Position numbers and translations under genes: made by a program. The notes below the pieces were generated by a model that was given only the letters and a program-made list of their open reading frames with translations, was not told the origin of the DNA and did not search any database. Shown one piece after another: positions 1 through 12,569 of a DNA stretch of 45,266 nucleotides. Position 1 is the first letter of the stretch; every line of letters starts with the position of its first letter. This stretch comes from a virus (taxonomy: Duplodnaviria > Heunggongvirae > Uroviricota > Caudoviricetes): the IMG/VR virus record IMGVR_UViG_2531839130_000013; one strand, given 5' to 3'.

Positions 1-1119
1 TCAAATAACCAACTTAACCCATTCCTGACCTCGAGTATCGTTATAGCGATCGGTGGTTGCCTGGACTTTATGCCCTAGTAATGTTTTTGTATCGATACCC
101 TGTGCACGGTACAGCCGTTCTGATAGAGAGCGTTGTTCATGAAATGTTGGCGGAGTTTTTCCTGCTGGTGGAATTATCCCAGCCAGATCCCGTGCTTTGG
201 CAAAGTAGTCGCTCAGGTTGTCTTTACTCATCGGCTTCGGTTGTTTCTGGTGCCGACTATGGATTAGATATGGACTTAATATTCTGTCTCGGCACCCATC
301 AATAACTTCTTTTAACGTTATCCCAATGGCATCACAGCGTAGTGTAAGCGGTAACGCCAGACGCATTCCGGTTTTTCCCTGGGTGATATGCAAGTGTTCG
401 TTCCACACATCTGAAAAACGCATGTGGCAAATGTCATCACGGCGCTGACCAGTAACAATCGCAAGAAGCATTGCGTTACGGATAAAGTGTTTTTCAGGCG
501 TTGCATTGTAAATTTTTTGCCAGTCTTCCATGGTGAGCCTGGCTCTGGTTACTTTAGGGATCGGTTTACGGGTAGCCTCCGGAGGATTCCATCCAGGAGG
601 AACTTCCCCTGCATGCTGTGCTTCTTTATAAATATCAACCCATAATCCACGATTTACTCTCGCTGTGCTGACCATGTCTTTATCCAGCCACTCATCCAGT
701 ATTAATGCAAAGTCTCTTACTTCCAGTTCTTTCAATGGGTGGTTTCCCAGACGGGAAACCAGGTATGCAGCCATTCGAGTTTTTTCTTTGTGAGTTGTAG
801 CTGCAATATCTCCATTTTTCAGTCGCGCGTCCTGTATTTTCAGATATCGATCAACCCATGCCTTTAATCTGATGCCCCGACGTTTTGTTGCTGACGGACT
901 TTCATCAATTTTGCGCATGAAATATTCAGCTTCTGCTGCAGCTATTCGCTGATTGGCTGTGGAAGCGATTTTTTCTGCTTTGCCTTTGTCTGTTCCGAGA
1001 CCGTGAAATTTTCCAGTCACAGGGTTTTTATACTGGTAGTAAACCCTGCCAGTTCTGCGATCAAACTTTTCGTAAAGACCGGTTACGTCAGTGCTGTTTT
1101 TTCGTGGCCTCGGTGACAT
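1..1119 (-). CDS. int: Tyrosine-type site-specific integrase (lambda Int family)
   Basis: 372-aa ORF; the stop codon is the first three bases of the window (tca on +). C-terminal catalytic region with HxxR-type motif and C-terminal Tyr (TDRYNDTRG); 5' end overlaps the upstream xis-like ORF as in lambda. Confidence 0.9.
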   Translation of the reverse strand: MSPRPRKNSTDVTGLYEKFDRRTGRVYYQYKNPVTGKFHGLGTDKGKAEKIASTANQRIAAAEAEYFMRKIDESPSATKRRGIRLKAWVDRYLKIQDARLKNGDIAATTHKEKTRMAAYLVSRLGNHPLKELEVRDFALILDEWLDKDMVSTARVNRGLWVDIYKEAQHAGEVPPGWNPPEATRKPIPKVTRARLTMEDWQKIYNATPEKHFIRNAMLLAIVTGQRRDDICHMRFSDVWNEHLHITQGKTGMRLALPLTLRCDAIGITLKEVIDGCRDRILSPYLIHSRHQKQPKPMSKDNLSDYFAKARDLAGIIPPAGKTPPTFHEQRSLSERLYRAQGIDTKTLLGHKVQATTDRYNDTRGQEWVKLVI

Positions 1120-4528: not shown

Positions 4529-4586
4529 AAAAAGGGCGGCAGAGCAGTCACGGAGTAAAACTGATACCGCTAAACGCCACCAGAAA
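4529..4586 (-). ncRNA. dicF: DicF small RNA (ftsZ-targeting sRNA of Qin-type prophages)
   Basis: Reverse complement of 4534-4586 reads tttctggtggcgtttagcggtatcagttttactccgtgactgctctgccgccc, near-identical to the 53-nt DicF sequence as I recall it, followed by a U-tract on the minus strand. A perfect 9-bp stem (4612-4620 / 4640-4648) lies just upstream in transcript order. Confidence 0.7.
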
Positions 4587-8105: not shown

Positions 8106-9152
8106 GTGAGTATGGCTAACGCCTGGCTCAGATTATGGCATGACATGCCAAACGATCCTAAGTGGCGAACAATTTCCAGGTTGTCAGGACAGCCAATCGC
8201 AACAGTGATGGCTGTGTATATCCACCTTCTGGTGAGTGCGTCACGAAATGTCACGACATGTCACGGTGTGTCACTACGTGGTCACATTGATGTCACGGCG
8301 GAAGATTTAGCAAGTGCGCTTGATGTGACGGAAGAAGTAATTGATTCAATTTTACAGGCAATGCAGGGGCGGGTACTTGATGGAGATTTGATCAGTGGAT
8401 GGGAAAAACGCCAGGTACTGAAAGAGGACAATGGCAACGTTTCACAAACCGCGAAATCCCCGGCAGAGCGCAAGAGAGCGCAGCGCGAGAGGGAAAAATT
8501 ACGAAAACAGAATGAGGGGGCGCGCGACGAGTCACGCATCTGTCACGACATGTCACGACGAGTCACGACAGATAAAGATACAGATAAAGAATTAAACCCC
8601 ACACATAACGCGCGCGTGCGAGAGAGTGCTCCTGCCAGTGAGGCAAATGGCGTGCCGTTGCAAACAGCGGAACCTGATTACCTGGAAGGCCTGAGCGAAC
8701 CCATCGGGAAATTTCCGATGACCGATGGCTGGCATCCGTCGCCGGATTTTCGACGACGGGCTGCGCTGTGGGGCGTGGCTCTTCCTGAGCCGGAATTTAC
8801 ACCAGCTGAACTTTCCGCCTTCCGGGACTACTGGGCAGCGGAGGGCAAAGTGTTCACGCAGGTTCAGTGGGAGCAGAAATTCGCCCGTCACGTAAATCAC
8901 GTCAGGGCGCAGGCTAAACCAGTCAGCAAGGGGGTAAACCATGCAGCAGCACCAGGTGGCACCGCATCACGGGCAGTTCAGGAAATTCGGGCAGCACGTG
9001 AGCAGTGGGAACGTGAAAACGGATTTATCAGCGACGGAAACGGCCTGGAAGCTGTGGGAACTCATGGGGGAGGTTTATTCGAACCGCTGGACCCAGAAGA
9101 ACGGGGCCGCACCTTCGAAGCTCTGGATTGCACAGATTGGCGCGATGACTGA
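8106..9152 (+). CDS. Replication initiation protein (O-like; YdaU/DUF1376-type N-terminus)
   Basis: 348-aa ORF with N-terminal WLRLWHDMPNDPKWRTI motif; two clusters of TGTCACG iterons lie inside the coding sequence, as the lambda ori lies inside O; immediately followed by a P-like gene. Confidence 0.65.
   Translation: MSMANAWLRLWHDMPNDPKWRTISRLSGQPIATVMAVYIHLLVSASRNVTTCHGVSLRGHIDVTAEDLASALDVTEEVIDSILQAMQGRVLDGDLISGWEKRQVLKEDNGNVSQTAKSPAERKRAQREREKLRKQNEGARDESRICHDMSRRVTTDKDTDKELNPTHNARVRESAPASEANGVPLQTAEPDYLEGLSEPIGKFPMTDGWHPSPDFRRRAALWGVALPEPEFTPAELSAFRDYWAAEGKVFTQVQWEQKFARHVNHVRAQAKPVSKGVNHAAAPGGTASRAVQEIRAAREQWERENGFISDGNGLEAVGTHGGGLFEPLDPEERGRTFEALDCTDWRDD
8239..8298. repeat. Iteron cluster 1: about six copies of (T)GTCACG at roughly 10-bp spacing
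   Basis: gcgTCACGaaaTGTCACGacaTGTCACGgtgTGTCACtacgtgGTCACattgaTGTCACG read directly from the sequence. Confidence 0.6.
8527..8564. repeat. Iteron cluster 2: four copies of GTCACG(A) followed by an A/T-rich tract (8565-8595)
   Basis: GAGTCACGcatcTGTCACGacaTGTCACGacgaGTCACGacag then gataaagatacagataaagaattaaa; iterons plus AT-rich region are ori-like. Confidence 0.55.
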
Positions 9153-9606
9153 GCAGCAAATCCGACAGGTCTGCCGCCAGTGCATGGACCGCTGCCGGGC
9201 GGGTGAAACATGGCCTCCGGACCTGGCTGAGTTTGTGGCACTGATTTCGGAGAGTGGGGCAAATCCATTTGGTCTGACGGTGGATGCTGTGATGGAGGAG
9301 TACCGTCGCTGGCGCAATGAGTCCTGGCGATACGACGGAAGCGATAAATACCCATGGACTCAGCCTGTGCTGTATCACATTTGCCTCGAGATGCGTTCAA
9401 AGGGGATTGAGCGCCAGATGACCGAAGGGGAATTAAAACGGCTTGCAGAACGGCAGCTGACGAAATGGGCAAAGCATGTTAGTAACGGCCTGAGCGTTCC
9501 GCCAGTCCGGCGACAACTGGCGGCACCCAAACGCCCGTCGGGACCAACGCCAATTGAGTTACTGAAACAGGAATATGAACGCCGGAAAGCGGCTGGGTTT
9601 GTTTGA
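8941..9606 (+). CDS. Replication protein P-like helicase loader
   Basis: C-terminal two-thirds align by eye with lambda P ([14 protein letters not shown] / [27 protein letters not shown]...[11 protein letters not shown] / YPWKSNAHYWLVTNLY...AELRRKAADEL). 5' end overlaps the initiator gene; true start may be the Met at 9064. Confidence 0.6.
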
Positions 9607-9640
9607 GTTGAGAAGTAATTTTTACCGGGAGGAAATTTTA

Positions 9641-10402
9641 ATGGAGACCGTTTTTGACGCACTGAAAGCGATGGGAAAAGCTACGTCGGTAGAACTGGCT
9701 GAGCGACTTGATATCAGTCGTGAAGAAGTGCTGAACGAACTATGGGAACTGAAAAAGGCTGGTTTCGTTGATAAAAGCGCGTACACCTGGCGTGTGGCTG
9801 ATAACAACGTTCAGCAGGAACAGCCAGCGCCAGAAGAACAGCCGGAAGAAACCTCCACGGCGACAGTAGCGAAAATCTCAGAGTGCGATTTAACCGCGAC
9901 GATTGAACAACGCGGACCACAAACGGCTGATGAGCTGGCTACATTGTTTGGTACCACATCACGCAAAGTGGCTTCAACGCTGGCAATGGCAATCAGCAAA
10001 GGCCGTCTGATTCGTGCTAATCAGGACGGTAAATTTCGTTACTGTATGCCGGGCGATAATTTACCAGCAGAGCCGAAAGCAGCATCGGTAGCGGAAACTG
10101 ATGGTAAAGCCTTTCCTCAGCCTGCATGCGTTGCGTTACCAGTACAGGAAGCTGCAACACAGGAAGATATTAAAACAGAGACTGTGGCGGACATTGTGCA
10201 GTCGCTGCCATCGTTTACTGAAACGCGAGCGGATGACCTGGTTTTACCATCGCTGCATATGGCAAACCGCGAACTGCGTCGGGCGAAAAATCATGTCCAG
10301 AAGTGGGAGCGAGTCTGCGCCGCGCTGCGGGAGCTGAACAAGCACCGGGATATTGTACGACAGATTACTGATTCTTCCCGCCATGTTGCATCGGAAAAGT
10401 GA
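9641..10402 (+). CDS. Hypothetical protein with N-terminal winged-helix-like segment (253 aa)
   Basis: Start [12 protein letters not shown]... with GGGAGG SD; N-terminal [28 protein letters not shown] looks like a wHTH; acidic/Q-rich linker. Confidence 0.5.
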
Positions 10403-10834
10403 TTGCCGGAGGCACCTGTGGCAAAAGTATTTACACCAGAAGAGCGGGAAAAAATTAAAGGGCAGGTTATTGAACTCGTGCGCCAGAGTGGGCGCGAGAC
10501 GTTACGGCAACTGGAAGCTAAAACAGGGGCGACAAGATACCTGATGAGCGTTCTCGCCAGAGAGCTGGTTGCCAGTGGTGATGTATACAACTCTGGCTAC
10601 GGGTTATTCCCGTCTGAACAGGCTCGTAAGGACTGGATAAAGGCCCGCAAAAAGATGTCGAAAGCAGCAGTGAAAAAAAAGAGCGACCCGGACTTGGTTT
10701 ATTCATTACCAGACGGAGAAATACGTCGTTACAACAGACGACAGAACATAATCTGTCGCGAGTGCCGGAAGAGTGAGGTTATGCAGCGAGTGCTGGCGTT
10801 TTATCAGGGGAATTTTGAGGAGGAGGTACTGTGA
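10403..10834 (+). CDS. Hypothetical protein (143 aa)
   Basis: ORF abutting the previous stop; contains a CxxC pair near the C-terminus (CRECRKSE); no family recognised. Confidence 0.4.
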   Translation: MPEAPVAKVFTPEEREKIKGQVIELVRQSGRETLRQLEAKTGATRYLMSVLARELVASGDVYNSGYGLFPSEQARKDWIKARKKMSKAAVKKKSDPDLVYSLPDGEIRRYNRRQNIICRECRKSEVMQRVLAFYQGNFEEEVL

Positions 10835-10891
10835 GTGAAATTAGCTATCAGTCTTCAATTACCGCTGGCATTCGCATCAAAGGAGAGGAGC

Positions 10892-11251
10892 ATGGAAATA
10901 AAACCAGAAGATGAGTTAAGTAATATTGTTTTATTTCCGGTAAAAGAGGATGACCCACGTAATCAGGTTAATTTTCTTTATGAGCCATCGGAAAGACCAT
11001 GCTGCCATCACGCTTCTGTCCGGGTTGACGAAAAAGAGCGTCAGGTCCGCTGTAAAATCTGCGGTGCAGTTGTGGAGCCATTTGACTGGATGCTCTCTGT
11101 GGCGAAAAGAGAAACCAGACTGGCAGATGGTGTAAAACAATTGCGTCAGGAGGAACGGGAAAGACGGAAAAATATAGAAAAGTTAATTCAGATTGAGCGT
11201 AACGCGAAAGCGCGGATACGCAGGGCGAAAAAAACAGAACTGAATAATTAA
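10892..11251 (+). CDS. Hypothetical zinc-ribbon protein (119 aa)
   Basis: Start MEIKPEDE with strong AAAGGAGAGGAG SD; Cys/His cluster CCHH...C.IC suggests a zinc ribbon; basic C-terminal tail. Confidence 0.5.
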   Translation: MEIKPEDELSNIVLFPVKEDDPRNQVNFLYEPSERPCCHHASVRVDEKERQVRCKICGAVVEPFDWMLSVAKRETRLADGVKQLRQEERERRKNIEKLIQIERNAKARIRRAKKTELNN

Positions 11252-11395
11252 ATTTAGCACTGTAAATAATTTTAATCCTTAACCTGAGGGATTTCTGCAC
11301 CCTCAGAACATCAGTAGGCCGCCCGAAAGGGCGGGAAGCAGTCACACATTTGTTTCCGATAGTCCCGTTCTAATGCTAGACTATTTGATATTTTC

Positions 11396-12082
11396 ATGAC
11401 CACAATAAATACGTTTATGACAGTTGCTGATTTCAAACGGCCTAAATTGGAGCTCCCAAACGGGGCAAACAAACTACTACTGCACTCTTGCTGTGCTCCA
11501 TGTTCCGGTGAAGTGATGGAGGCGCTTCAGGCCTCGGGAATCGACTACACCATCTTTTTCTACAACCCGAACATTCATCCTCAGAAAGAGTATTTAATTC
11601 GTAAGGATGAGAATATTCGCTTTGCTGAACAACACGGCGTGCAGTTTATCGATGCTGATTACGACACAGACAACTGGTTTGAACGTGCCAAAGGAATGGA
11701 ATGGGAGCCCGAGAGGGGGATCCGTTGTACCATGTGTTTTGACATGCGTTTTGAGCGGACAGCGTTGTACGCTGCTGAAAATGGTTTCAGTGTGATCAGC
11801 AGTTCGCTGGGCATTTCACGCTGGAAAAATATGCAGCAGGTTAACGACTGTGGGCGGCGAGCCGTCGCGCATTATCCGGGAATGGTGTACTGGGATTATA
11901 ACTGGCGCAAGCAGGGCGGCTCGTCCCGTATGATTGAAATCAGCAAGCGCGAAAAATTCTATCAGCAGGAATATTGTGGCTGTGTGTATTCTCTGCGCGA
12001 TACCAATCTACACCGCAAATCTCAGGGACGCCCTCTTATCAAAATTGGTCAACTCCACTACGGTAAAGAAGAGAAGGAGTGA
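11396..12082 (+). CDS. queH: QueH-like protein (DUF208, epoxyqueuosine reductase family)
   Basis: N-terminal [11 protein letters not shown] motif plus downstream conserved Cys (CTMCFD, YCGCV) match the signature of QueH/DUF208 as I recall it; stand-alone gene between replication genes and the hok locus. Confidence 0.6.
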
Positions 12083-12262
12083 TTTTATGGATCACCTTTC
12101 TGATTGATTTCATATTGGCGAGGTAGCAGGAGTTAAGTAGAATTGCTGCGGGTGCTTGAGGCTATCTGTCTCAGGCATGAACACCAAAAGGCAGATAGAG
12201 AAAAGCCCCAGTTAACATTACGCGTCCTGCAAGACGCTTAACATTAATCTGAGGCCATATCT

Positions 12263-12322
12263 ATGCGACACATAGAGATTAGCCTCTTACGGACCGAAAG
12301 GTCAAGGAGAAGCGGGCTATGA
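12263..12322 (+). CDS. Short leader ORF (19 codons) whose stop overlaps the hok ATG (mok-like coupling ORF)
   Basis: atgcgacacatagag... ends in TGA overlapping the hok ATG (cTATGAag); the leader region is rich in inverted repeats typical of hok mRNAs. Confidence 0.3.
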   Translation: MRHIEISLLRTERSRRSGL

Positions 12323-12474
12323 AGCAGCGAAAGGCGATGTTAATCGCCCTGATCGTCATCTGTTTAACCGTCATAGTGACGGCACTGGTAACGAGGAAAG
12401 ACCTCTGCGAGGTACGAATCCGAACCGGCCAGACGGAGGTCGCTGTCTTCACAGCTTACGAACCTGAGGAGTAA
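12319..12474 (+). CDS. hok: Hok/Gef-family type I toxin (51 aa), HokD/RelF-like
   Basis: Hand-translated: MKQRKAMLIALIVICLTVIVTALVTRKDLCEVRIRTGQTEVAVFTAYEPEE, essentially the Hok/RelF sequence; AAGGAGAAG SD upstream; below the size threshold of the ORF track. Confidence 0.85.
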   Translation: MKQRKAMLIALIVICLTVIVTALVTRKDLCEVRIRTGQTEVAVFTAYEPEE

Positions 12475-12544
12475 GAGACCTGGCGGGGGAGAAATCCCTC
12501 GCCACCTCTGATGTGTCAGGCATCCTCAATGCACCCGCACTTAA

Positions 12545-12569
12545 CCCGCTTCGGCGGGTTTTGTTTTTT
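12545..12569 (+). terminator. Intrinsic terminator downstream of hok
   Basis: cccgc-ttcg-gcggg stem-loop followed by an 11-nt T-rich run. Confidence 0.6.

Follow-up and report, generated by a model that had tools for sequence, protein, structure and literature searches.

A Qin-type lambdoid prophage of Escherichia carries, directly upstream of hok, a single-gene cassette whose product is supported as a bona fide member of the QueH (formerly DUF208) family by the agreement of sequence profile, conserved cysteines and predicted fold. Neither the enzyme family and its reaction nor the database name of the protein is new; the novelty lies in the occurrence of a canonical QueH in a phage setting. 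On balance, it appears likely that the cassette provides an active QueH which benefits the lysogen by rendering queuosine (Q) formation independent of vitamin B12. Within this composite explanation, the enzymatic identity of the protein is surer than the explanation as a whole, while the physiological benefit is less sure.

In E. coli, Tgt and QueA generate epoxyqueuosine (oQ) at position 34 of tRNA-Asp, -Asn, -His and -Tyr, and QueG, a cobalamin and iron-sulfur enzyme, reduces oQ to Q. The organism does not synthesise cobalamin de novo and needs to import it. To our knowledge, QueG stands alone among the cobalamin enzymes of E. coli K-12 in having no known B12-independent substitute. QueH performs the same reaction (oQ34 to Q34 in tRNA) as a cobalamin-independent oQ reductase unrelated to QueG, the latter being cobalamin-dependent (PMC5615194; PMC6461909). 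In E. coli, queG is a core gene, whereas queH is accessory. Both enzymes are found in S. aureus and some streptococci, and the differing expression of queG and queH in S. aureus has been ascribed to cofactor supply (PMC13443448; PMC12632869). S. pneumoniae lives with oQ alone (PMC12632869), which weighs against the importance of B12-independent Q.

Family Assignment, Conserved Cysteines and Predicted Fold

The window (the whole stretch of DNA analysed here, 45,266 nucleotides of IMG/VR record IMGVR_UViG_2531839130_000013) is essentially one Qin-type lambdoid prophage. An uninterrupted ORF of 228 codons occupies positions 11396..12082 on the plus strand, exactly as first described in a sequence-only reading of this DNA, which had recognised in the product a QueH-like protein with an HSCCAPCS motif and further cysteine pairs. 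All of these elements were confirmed, with HSCCAPCS at residues 30-37, RCTMC at 110-114 and YCGC at 193-196 (228-aa numbering). A Pfam search, proposed in that reading as a check, assigned the protein to QueH (PF02677; E 1.6e-65; 220.9 bits against a curated cutoff of 23.5 bits; profile positions 1-174 of 175). Furthermore, the PHROG family phrog_3217 (‘unknown function’) matches the product at E 6e-138, and an NCBIfam profile search of the product gave no matching model. The best solved-structure match by sequence was T. maritima QueH (7lc5, E 3e-22), and only T. maritima QueH entries were found.

A library of 1.8 billion proteins yielded 4,736 matches at E <= 1e-3, from which 150 representatives sharing less than 50% identity with one another were taken; the query and T. 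maritima QueH were added to the 85 roughly full-length representatives to give a family alignment of 87 sequences. All seven family cysteines are kept in the prophage protein, namely Cys32, 33, 36, 111, 114, 194 and 196 in the 228-aa numbering (Cys25/26/29/104/107/187/189 in the 221-aa numbering discussed below), and the corresponding columns hold cysteine in 84-98% of the 87 diverse representatives. In another alignment (A2; 26 sequences, 32-72% identity), six cysteines are invariant and the third Cys of CCxPC is nearly so. In the solved enzyme, the cysteines of the CCxPC, RCxxC and CGC motifs bind the metal cluster, as Li et al. reportedly described in 2021. The prophage protein shares 31-32% identity with T. 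maritima QueH, and six of the conserved cysteines align between the two. At the residue following CCAP, the T. maritima enzyme has Asp13 and the prophage protein Cys36; since cysteine occupies this position in 71 of 76 diverse family members, it is the T. maritima enzyme that is the exception. Proteobacterial QueH proteins additionally bear a basic C-terminal extension of ~25 residues, unlike T. maritima QueH.

Structure prediction, another of the checks proposed, led to the same family. An AlphaFold2 model of the product (built from a 50-sequence alignment; pLDDT 78.1, pTM 0.81) was compared with the PDB using Foldseek, and the top five matches were all T. maritima QueH (E 1e-11 to 8e-10; target-normalised TM 0.79-0.82; rmsd ~3 Å; 170-182 aligned columns), while the next-best folds (nucleotide-alpha-hydrolases, e.g., TtuA and argininosuccinate synthetase) were weaker in E-value by approximately six orders of magnitude. 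The modelled protein has the same fold as T. maritima QueH (PDB 7LC5, 7LC7, 9DEU), with a TM of 0.81 (7lc5) and an rmsd of 3.0 Å over 180 columns. From the sequence and the model, we infer that the prophage copy would possess QueH enzyme activity.

Start Codon and Coding Sequence

The ORF contains two candidate start codons, of which Met8 (11417), giving a protein of 221 aa, is more likely to be the real start than the ATG at 11396. Several comparisons point to Met8: chromosomal QueH orthologues begin at the equivalent position, those of Erwinia, Providencia and Photorhabdus have nothing corresponding to codons 1-7 of the 228-aa form, and the RefSeq annotation of prophage QueH is the 221-aa form. 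Moreover, codons 2-7 account for 4 of the 15 amino-acid positions that vary among 24 prophage alleles (Fisher p = 2e-4). No clear Shine-Dalgarno sequence was found before either candidate start codon, so translation may be weak.

The queH Cassette and Its Slot

The extent of the cassette was mapped on 83 loci, consisting of the best-matching 80 of 188 IMG/VR viral contigs with queH along with E. coli 042, E. coli B and phage HannyBb. Along the window, blastn coverage rises from 31 to 82 of these loci at about 11350, and a common block starting at ~11346-11350 runs through queH into hok in essentially all 83. Upstream of ~11346 the contexts diverge (18 distinct 220-nt upstream sequences in the 83-locus set), and just 24 of the 83 loci contain orf138. 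Homology to a related prophage without queH (strain RM8082) ends at 11350, while PPompW phages resume their homology to the window at 12130. The coverage jump, the end of the RM8082 homology and the restart of the PPompW homology together delimit a cassette of ~11346-12129 (Table 1).

Directly upstream of hok, the same slot accommodates relB-relE in the Qin prophage of K-12, which has no queH there, and the adhesin gene paa/adfO in PPompW phages; otherwise collinear related prophages differ in the content of this slot (relBE, paa or other genes). Judged by this comparison of sequences, phages of this group carry differing cargo in the slot upstream of hok. The genes relBE and paa/adfO resemble queH in their position downstream of the replication/DUF977 genes and in their variable presence, but they specify a toxin-antitoxin pair and an adhesin, respectively, whereas the cargo here is a tRNA-modification enzyme. 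The earlier description of queH as prophage cargo is therefore borne out by a discrete insert that varies among collinear lambdoid prophages. Its placement between the replication genes and hok was likewise confirmed, with O- and P-like genes upstream and sok/hok downstream. A promoter/terminator scan detected no terminator-like hairpin in the stretch from the queH stop codon (12082) to hok; such a hairpin first appears at 12543-12560, past hok, and the cassette is without a terminator of its own.

Table 1. Coordinates of the queH cassette and of surrounding prophage features in the window.
Feature	Position	Strand	Remarks
Integrase	1-1119	-	
Exonuclease		-	
DicF sRNA	4534-4585	-	
O-like protein with DnaT domain	8106-9152	+	Upstream of queH
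Lambda-P-like protein	8941-9606	+	Upstream of queH
DUF1627	9575-10402	+	Upstream of queH
DUF977	10403-10834	+	Upstream of queH
orf138	Between DUF977 and queH	+	138-aa ORF, unassigned
queH cassette	11346..12129	+	~0.78 kb, single gene; present or absent as a unit
Promoter-like extended -10 element (TGnTAnAnT type), TGCTAGACT	11374..11382	+	Within cassette, upstream of queH
In-frame upstream ATG and six codons	11396..11416	+	Probably 5' leader, not coding
queH CDS, most likely form	11417..12082	+	Includes stop; 221 aa, start at Met8
hok/sok toxin-antitoxin locus	12150..12474	+	Phage backbone, outside cassette
sok	12150-12321		Rfam RF01794, 105.5 bits
Hok ORF	12319-12474	+	
tRNA-Met(CAU)	16957-17032	+	
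tRNA-Arg(UCU)	17130-17206	+	

After hok, the plus strand encodes DUF968, RusA, antiterminator Q, an N6/N4 DNA methyltransferase, tRNA-Met and tRNA-Arg, and the lysis, terminase, head and tail genes come after the tRNA genes. The tRNA genes had been mentioned in the sequence-only reading, where QueH was suggested to fit with them. They are indeed present; the suggested fit fails, as neither anticodon (CAU, UCU) is of the GUN type. The prophage tRNAs are therefore not queuosine substrates, and a functional link between queH and these genes was rejected as unsupported.

Another suggestion was that the protein acts on a 7-deazaguanine-type nucleic-acid modification, i.e., that it serves phage DNA modification or a related defence/counter-defence function instead of tRNA. 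Phages are known to modify their DNA with Q-pathway enzymes (PMC6884629), and the clusters responsible (DpdA with FolE/QueD/QueE/QueC; Hutinet et al. 2019, PMC6884629) resemble the present case in being phage-borne queuosine-pathway genes. However, these clusters serve to produce preQ0-type bases for incorporation into DNA, and the phages are reported to be without QueA, QueG or QueH (PMC6884629), whereas the prophage queH is a lone gene for a late-pathway, tRNA-specific enzyme. A Pfam scan of ten early-region proteins revealed no TGT/DpdA, FolE or QueC/D/E, and the positions of the remaining large ORFs correspond to those of exonuclease, terminase and portal genes in related annotated phages. 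PADLOC defence-system models gave no match to QueH, and an RNA family search of the window found no preQ1 riboswitch or other Q-related RNA. The protein is, in addition, 88-92% identical to housekeeping QueH. We know of no description of the epoxide on the cyclopentenediol of oQ, the substrate of QueH, other than in tRNA. With the required partners absent among the early-region proteins, no PADLOC match, no preQ1 riboswitch and a housekeeping-like sequence, a role in DNA modification or defence was rejected and can be given only the slightest probability.

Probable Origin From a Chromosomal queH

The nearest relatives of the prophage protein are QueH proteins of Enterobacterales (79-92% amino-acid identity). 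Of the potential donors sampled, Scandinavium (92%) comes closest, followed by Kluyvera (90%) and Enterobacter (88-90%), while Erwinia, Providencia and Photorhabdus share 79-86%. Because identity to the chromosomal QueH of Enterobacter, Kluyvera and Scandinavium reaches 88-92%, a chromosomal enterobacterial housekeeping queH was probably taken up by an Escherichia phage lineage. Chromosomal and prophage versions have a common length, cysteine set, basic C-terminal tail and -10-like element, and differ in their surroundings. The chromosomal genes reside in ordinary neighbourhoods (adjoining tmcA and purC in Providencia, benE in Photorhabdus and a LysR regulator in a Citrobacter/Klebsiella-type contig; between purL and glrK in Erwinia; among DeoR, GH28 and LysR genes in Enterobacter), whereas the prophage copy is a ~0.78-kb cassette beside hok/sok. 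Phage flanks were encountered at only one of 80 species-representative loci, that of Escherichia albertii (99% identity).

The captured segment seems to include regulatory sequence. Comparison of upstream regions brought out the extended -10 element TGCTAGACT (TG at 11374-11375; hexamer TAGACT at 11377-11382), which is separated by 34 nt from the Met8 ATG, the hexamer beginning 40 nt before this codon. In most prophage alleles TGCTACACT takes the place of TGCTAGACT, and TGCTA[C/G]ACT occurs in all four prophage/phage upstream variants compared as well as in the upstream classes listed. Chromosomal queH genes have a -10-like hexamer at a similar distance, -37 to -41 from the start codon: TGCTACACT at -37 in Erwinia, TGCTAAAAT at -41 in the Citrobacter/Klebsiella-type contig, TATACT at -38 in Providencia and TATAAT at -37 in Photorhabdus. 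A simple consensus promoter scan called nothing upstream of queH, as the -35 is weak. These similarities suggest that the element may represent the promoter and leader that queH had on the chromosome and brought with it on capture. With a putative promoter of its own in the cassette, queH could be expressed from a repressed prophage; we infer from the upstream sequence that the promoter would be active and the gene expressed in lysogens.

Distribution, Redundancy With queG and Selection

Among 5,426 complete E. coli genomes, 995 contain queH (92-98% nucleotide identity to the window), a prevalence of 18% that is inflated by clonal sampling (e.g., of ST131, O157 and B strains). The copies are nearly all chromosomal and bear the RefSeq name ‘epoxyqueuosine reductase QueH’, and the exact 221-aa protein is found under the QueH name on 254 NCBI contigs. 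Among the carriers are the laboratory strains B (REL606, ATCC 11303), C and ATCC 8739. In contrast, queG is present in all 5,426 genomes, in keeping with the earlier statement that E. coli normally relies on QueG; in E. coli, queH is therefore always a second enzyme for the same step. Apart from prophages, a tblastn search of 50,697 GenBank phage records gave 25 matches, with Escherichia phage HannyBb as the only credible isolated phage (its queH being annotated ‘hypothetical protein’) and the others being either metagenome fragments lacking annotation or dubious records of very large size.

The gene is intact in 80/80 of the IMG/VR copies sampled (the best-matching 80 of 188, a choice which biases the sample toward intact genes). 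These 80 copies represent 24 nucleotide alleles with a Nei-Gojobori mean dS of 0.113, a mean dN of 0.007 and a dN/dS of ~0.06; between the two main allele groups, dS amounts to 0.27-0.28 and dN to 0.017-0.020. In E. coli B, an intact queH persists in a decayed prophage (frameshifted integrase, IS3, truncated DUF968 and tail genes). As judged from these allele comparisons, queH evolves under strong purifying selection.

Such a pattern has to be set against the possibility that queH is a neutral passenger, hitch-hiking with hok/sok and the prophage and functionless in Escherichia. The tight linkage of hok to queH (69-82 of the 83 loci), the duplication of a universal host gene and the lack of an obvious ribosome-binding site would all accord with a passenger. 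On the other side, hok also occurs in related prophages without queH, and the low dN/dS over the 24 alleles (at a dS of up to 0.28 between the main groups), the intact copies in the sample and the retention of the gene in the decaying E. coli B prophage argue against neutrality. Therefore, a functionless queH is considered improbable, and a gene retained for the activity of its product is the preferred reading.

Proposed Function in the Lysogen

According to the proposed scenario, a chromosomal enterobacterial queH with a short promoter and leader would have been captured as a single-gene cassette, which, in Qin-type lambdoid prophages of Escherichia, would then have settled at the variable site upstream of hok/sok. 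The prophage gene would encode a functional iron-sulfur, cobalamin-independent QueH that removes the epoxide oxygen of oQ34 to yield Q. Expression in the lysogen would proceed from the putative promoter of the cassette and, on induction, also from the early rightward operon. Since QueG needs cobalamin, which E. coli must import, and QueH does not, the last step of Q formation would become B12-independent, and prophage QueH would let lysogens finish Q-tRNA when B12 is scarce or not imported. A B12-related benefit to lysogens may follow from this difference in cofactor. The more specific view of queH as a lysogenic-conversion gene that uncouples Q-tRNA maturation from vitamin B12 is offered only tentatively.

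The enzyme could instead act mainly during lytic growth, where a delayed-early queH would turn host oQ-tRNA to Q-tRNA and thereby aid phage translation, any benefit to the lysogen being incidental. In line with this, queH is co-oriented with the early rightward genes and lies between P/DUF977 and Q, HannyBb with its queH was isolated as a virion, and phage infection has been reported in a preprint to raise Q in Shewanella via queG induction (10.64898/2026.03.05.709803). Nevertheless, the E. coli B prophage in which queH is intact is defective, so that lytic growth is no longer possible, and the promoter-like element borne by the cassette is of the chromosomal type. Codon usage gave no signal of such a role and was uninformative: across 48 genes of the window, NAU accounts for 54.7% of NAY codons (51.5% in early and 56.8% in late genes), which is about the E. 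coli average and shows no enrichment. A primarily lytic function is thus held to be unlikely, and a lytic contribution is compatible with the explanation preferred here, as it does not exclude a benefit to the lysogen.

Novelty and Significance

The sequence-only reading had called a phage-borne QueH unexpected. This holds for the literature, as the search made here found no paper describing queH as phage or prophage cargo, including in E. coli, and a survey of queuosine-pathway genes in viruses found none of QueA, QueG and QueH (PMC6884629). It does not hold for the databases, where RefSeq/PGAP already names the exact protein QueH. Phage queuosine-pathway genes have hitherto been tied to DNA modification; here, a tRNA-specific late step is placed in a temperate phage lineage.

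As a practical warning, the Q/oQ content may vary between E. coli strains owing to a prophage. Strains with and without queH provide a natural, nearly isogenic system for asking whether the oQ-to-Q step affects fitness, as well as whether the QueG step is B12-limited in nature. If the proposed uncoupling from B12 is true, lysogens could keep fully modified Q-tRNA when B12 runs short in the gut. BtuB is the B12 importer and also the receptor for several phages and E-type colicins, and Q-tRNA could likewise survive the loss or repression of BtuB. The strong selection on a mobile oQ reductase would then show, for the first time from population-genetic evidence, that oQ and Q lack functional equivalence in vivo.

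Prophage type and gene surroundings of queH

The DicF small RNA lies in the leftward region of the window, and the corresponding region of related prophages is occupied by dicB; the prophage was therefore typed as Qin-type. Directly upstream of the queH cassette, orf138 (138 aa) harbours a cysteine/histidine motif (CCHH...CKIC), returned no match in Pfam and PADLOC scans, and is found in only about 24 of the 83 queH-carrying loci. On the other side, the cassette is followed by a complete hok/sok locus with a promoter-like site and a terminator-like hairpin at its end. Since no terminator is present between queH and hok, transcription of this gene could extend into the hok mRNA. Further downstream, the tRNA pair comes after two genes, one for antiterminator Q and one for an N6/N4 DNA methyltransferase; the CAU tRNA of the pair could be of the Ile-lysidine type.

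Features of the prophage around queH
Feature	Position	Strand	Remarks
DicF small RNA	4534-4585	-	Rfam RF00039, 68.6 bits
orf138	10835-11251	+	
Promoter-like site of hok/sok region	12115-12143	+	
hok/sok locus	12150-12560	+	
sok	within 12150-12560	+	Rfam match, 105.5 bits
Hok ORF	12319-12474	+	51 aa
Terminator-like hairpin	12543-12560	+	
N6/N4 DNA methyltransferase gene	15858-16907	+	
tRNA-Met(CAU) and tRNA-Arg(UCU)	16957-17206	+	

Allelic and genomic variation

A second queH allele group, which includes E. coli B (locus L002) and phage HannyBb (locus L007), shows 94% nucleotide identity; here, approximately 370 bp of additional DNA (8693-9066 in L002) separates the queH stop codon from hok, and a DNA methyltransferase gene fragment replaces orf138 or DUF977 on the 5' side. 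Among complete E. coli genomes, a few harbour two queH copies, and three copies are plasmid-borne.

Apart from these, five QueH-family proteins from the protein-library searches (P0125, P0129, P0134, P0138 and P0097) carry the QueH domain within a larger predicted protein or fusion. The domain is embedded in predicted proteins of 1,398, 761, 719 and 824 aa, far longer than usual, and is joined to a ribosomal-protein S21 domain in one of 333 aa; these could be genuine fusions or merged gene calls.

Conservation of the QueH clade

In the genome contig scan (80 species-representative loci, L170-L249), the E. coli prophage QueH shares 75-80% identity with chromosomal QueH of Alphaproteobacteria (Sphingomonas, Paracoccus, Acetobacter), Betaproteobacteria (Oligella, Neisseriaceae) and other Gammaproteobacteria (Pseudomonas, Stenotrophomonas). 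Judged from these identities, the clade to which the prophage copy belongs is very strongly conserved, and such clade-wide similarity is explained either by extreme constraint or by horizontal transfer on a wide scale.
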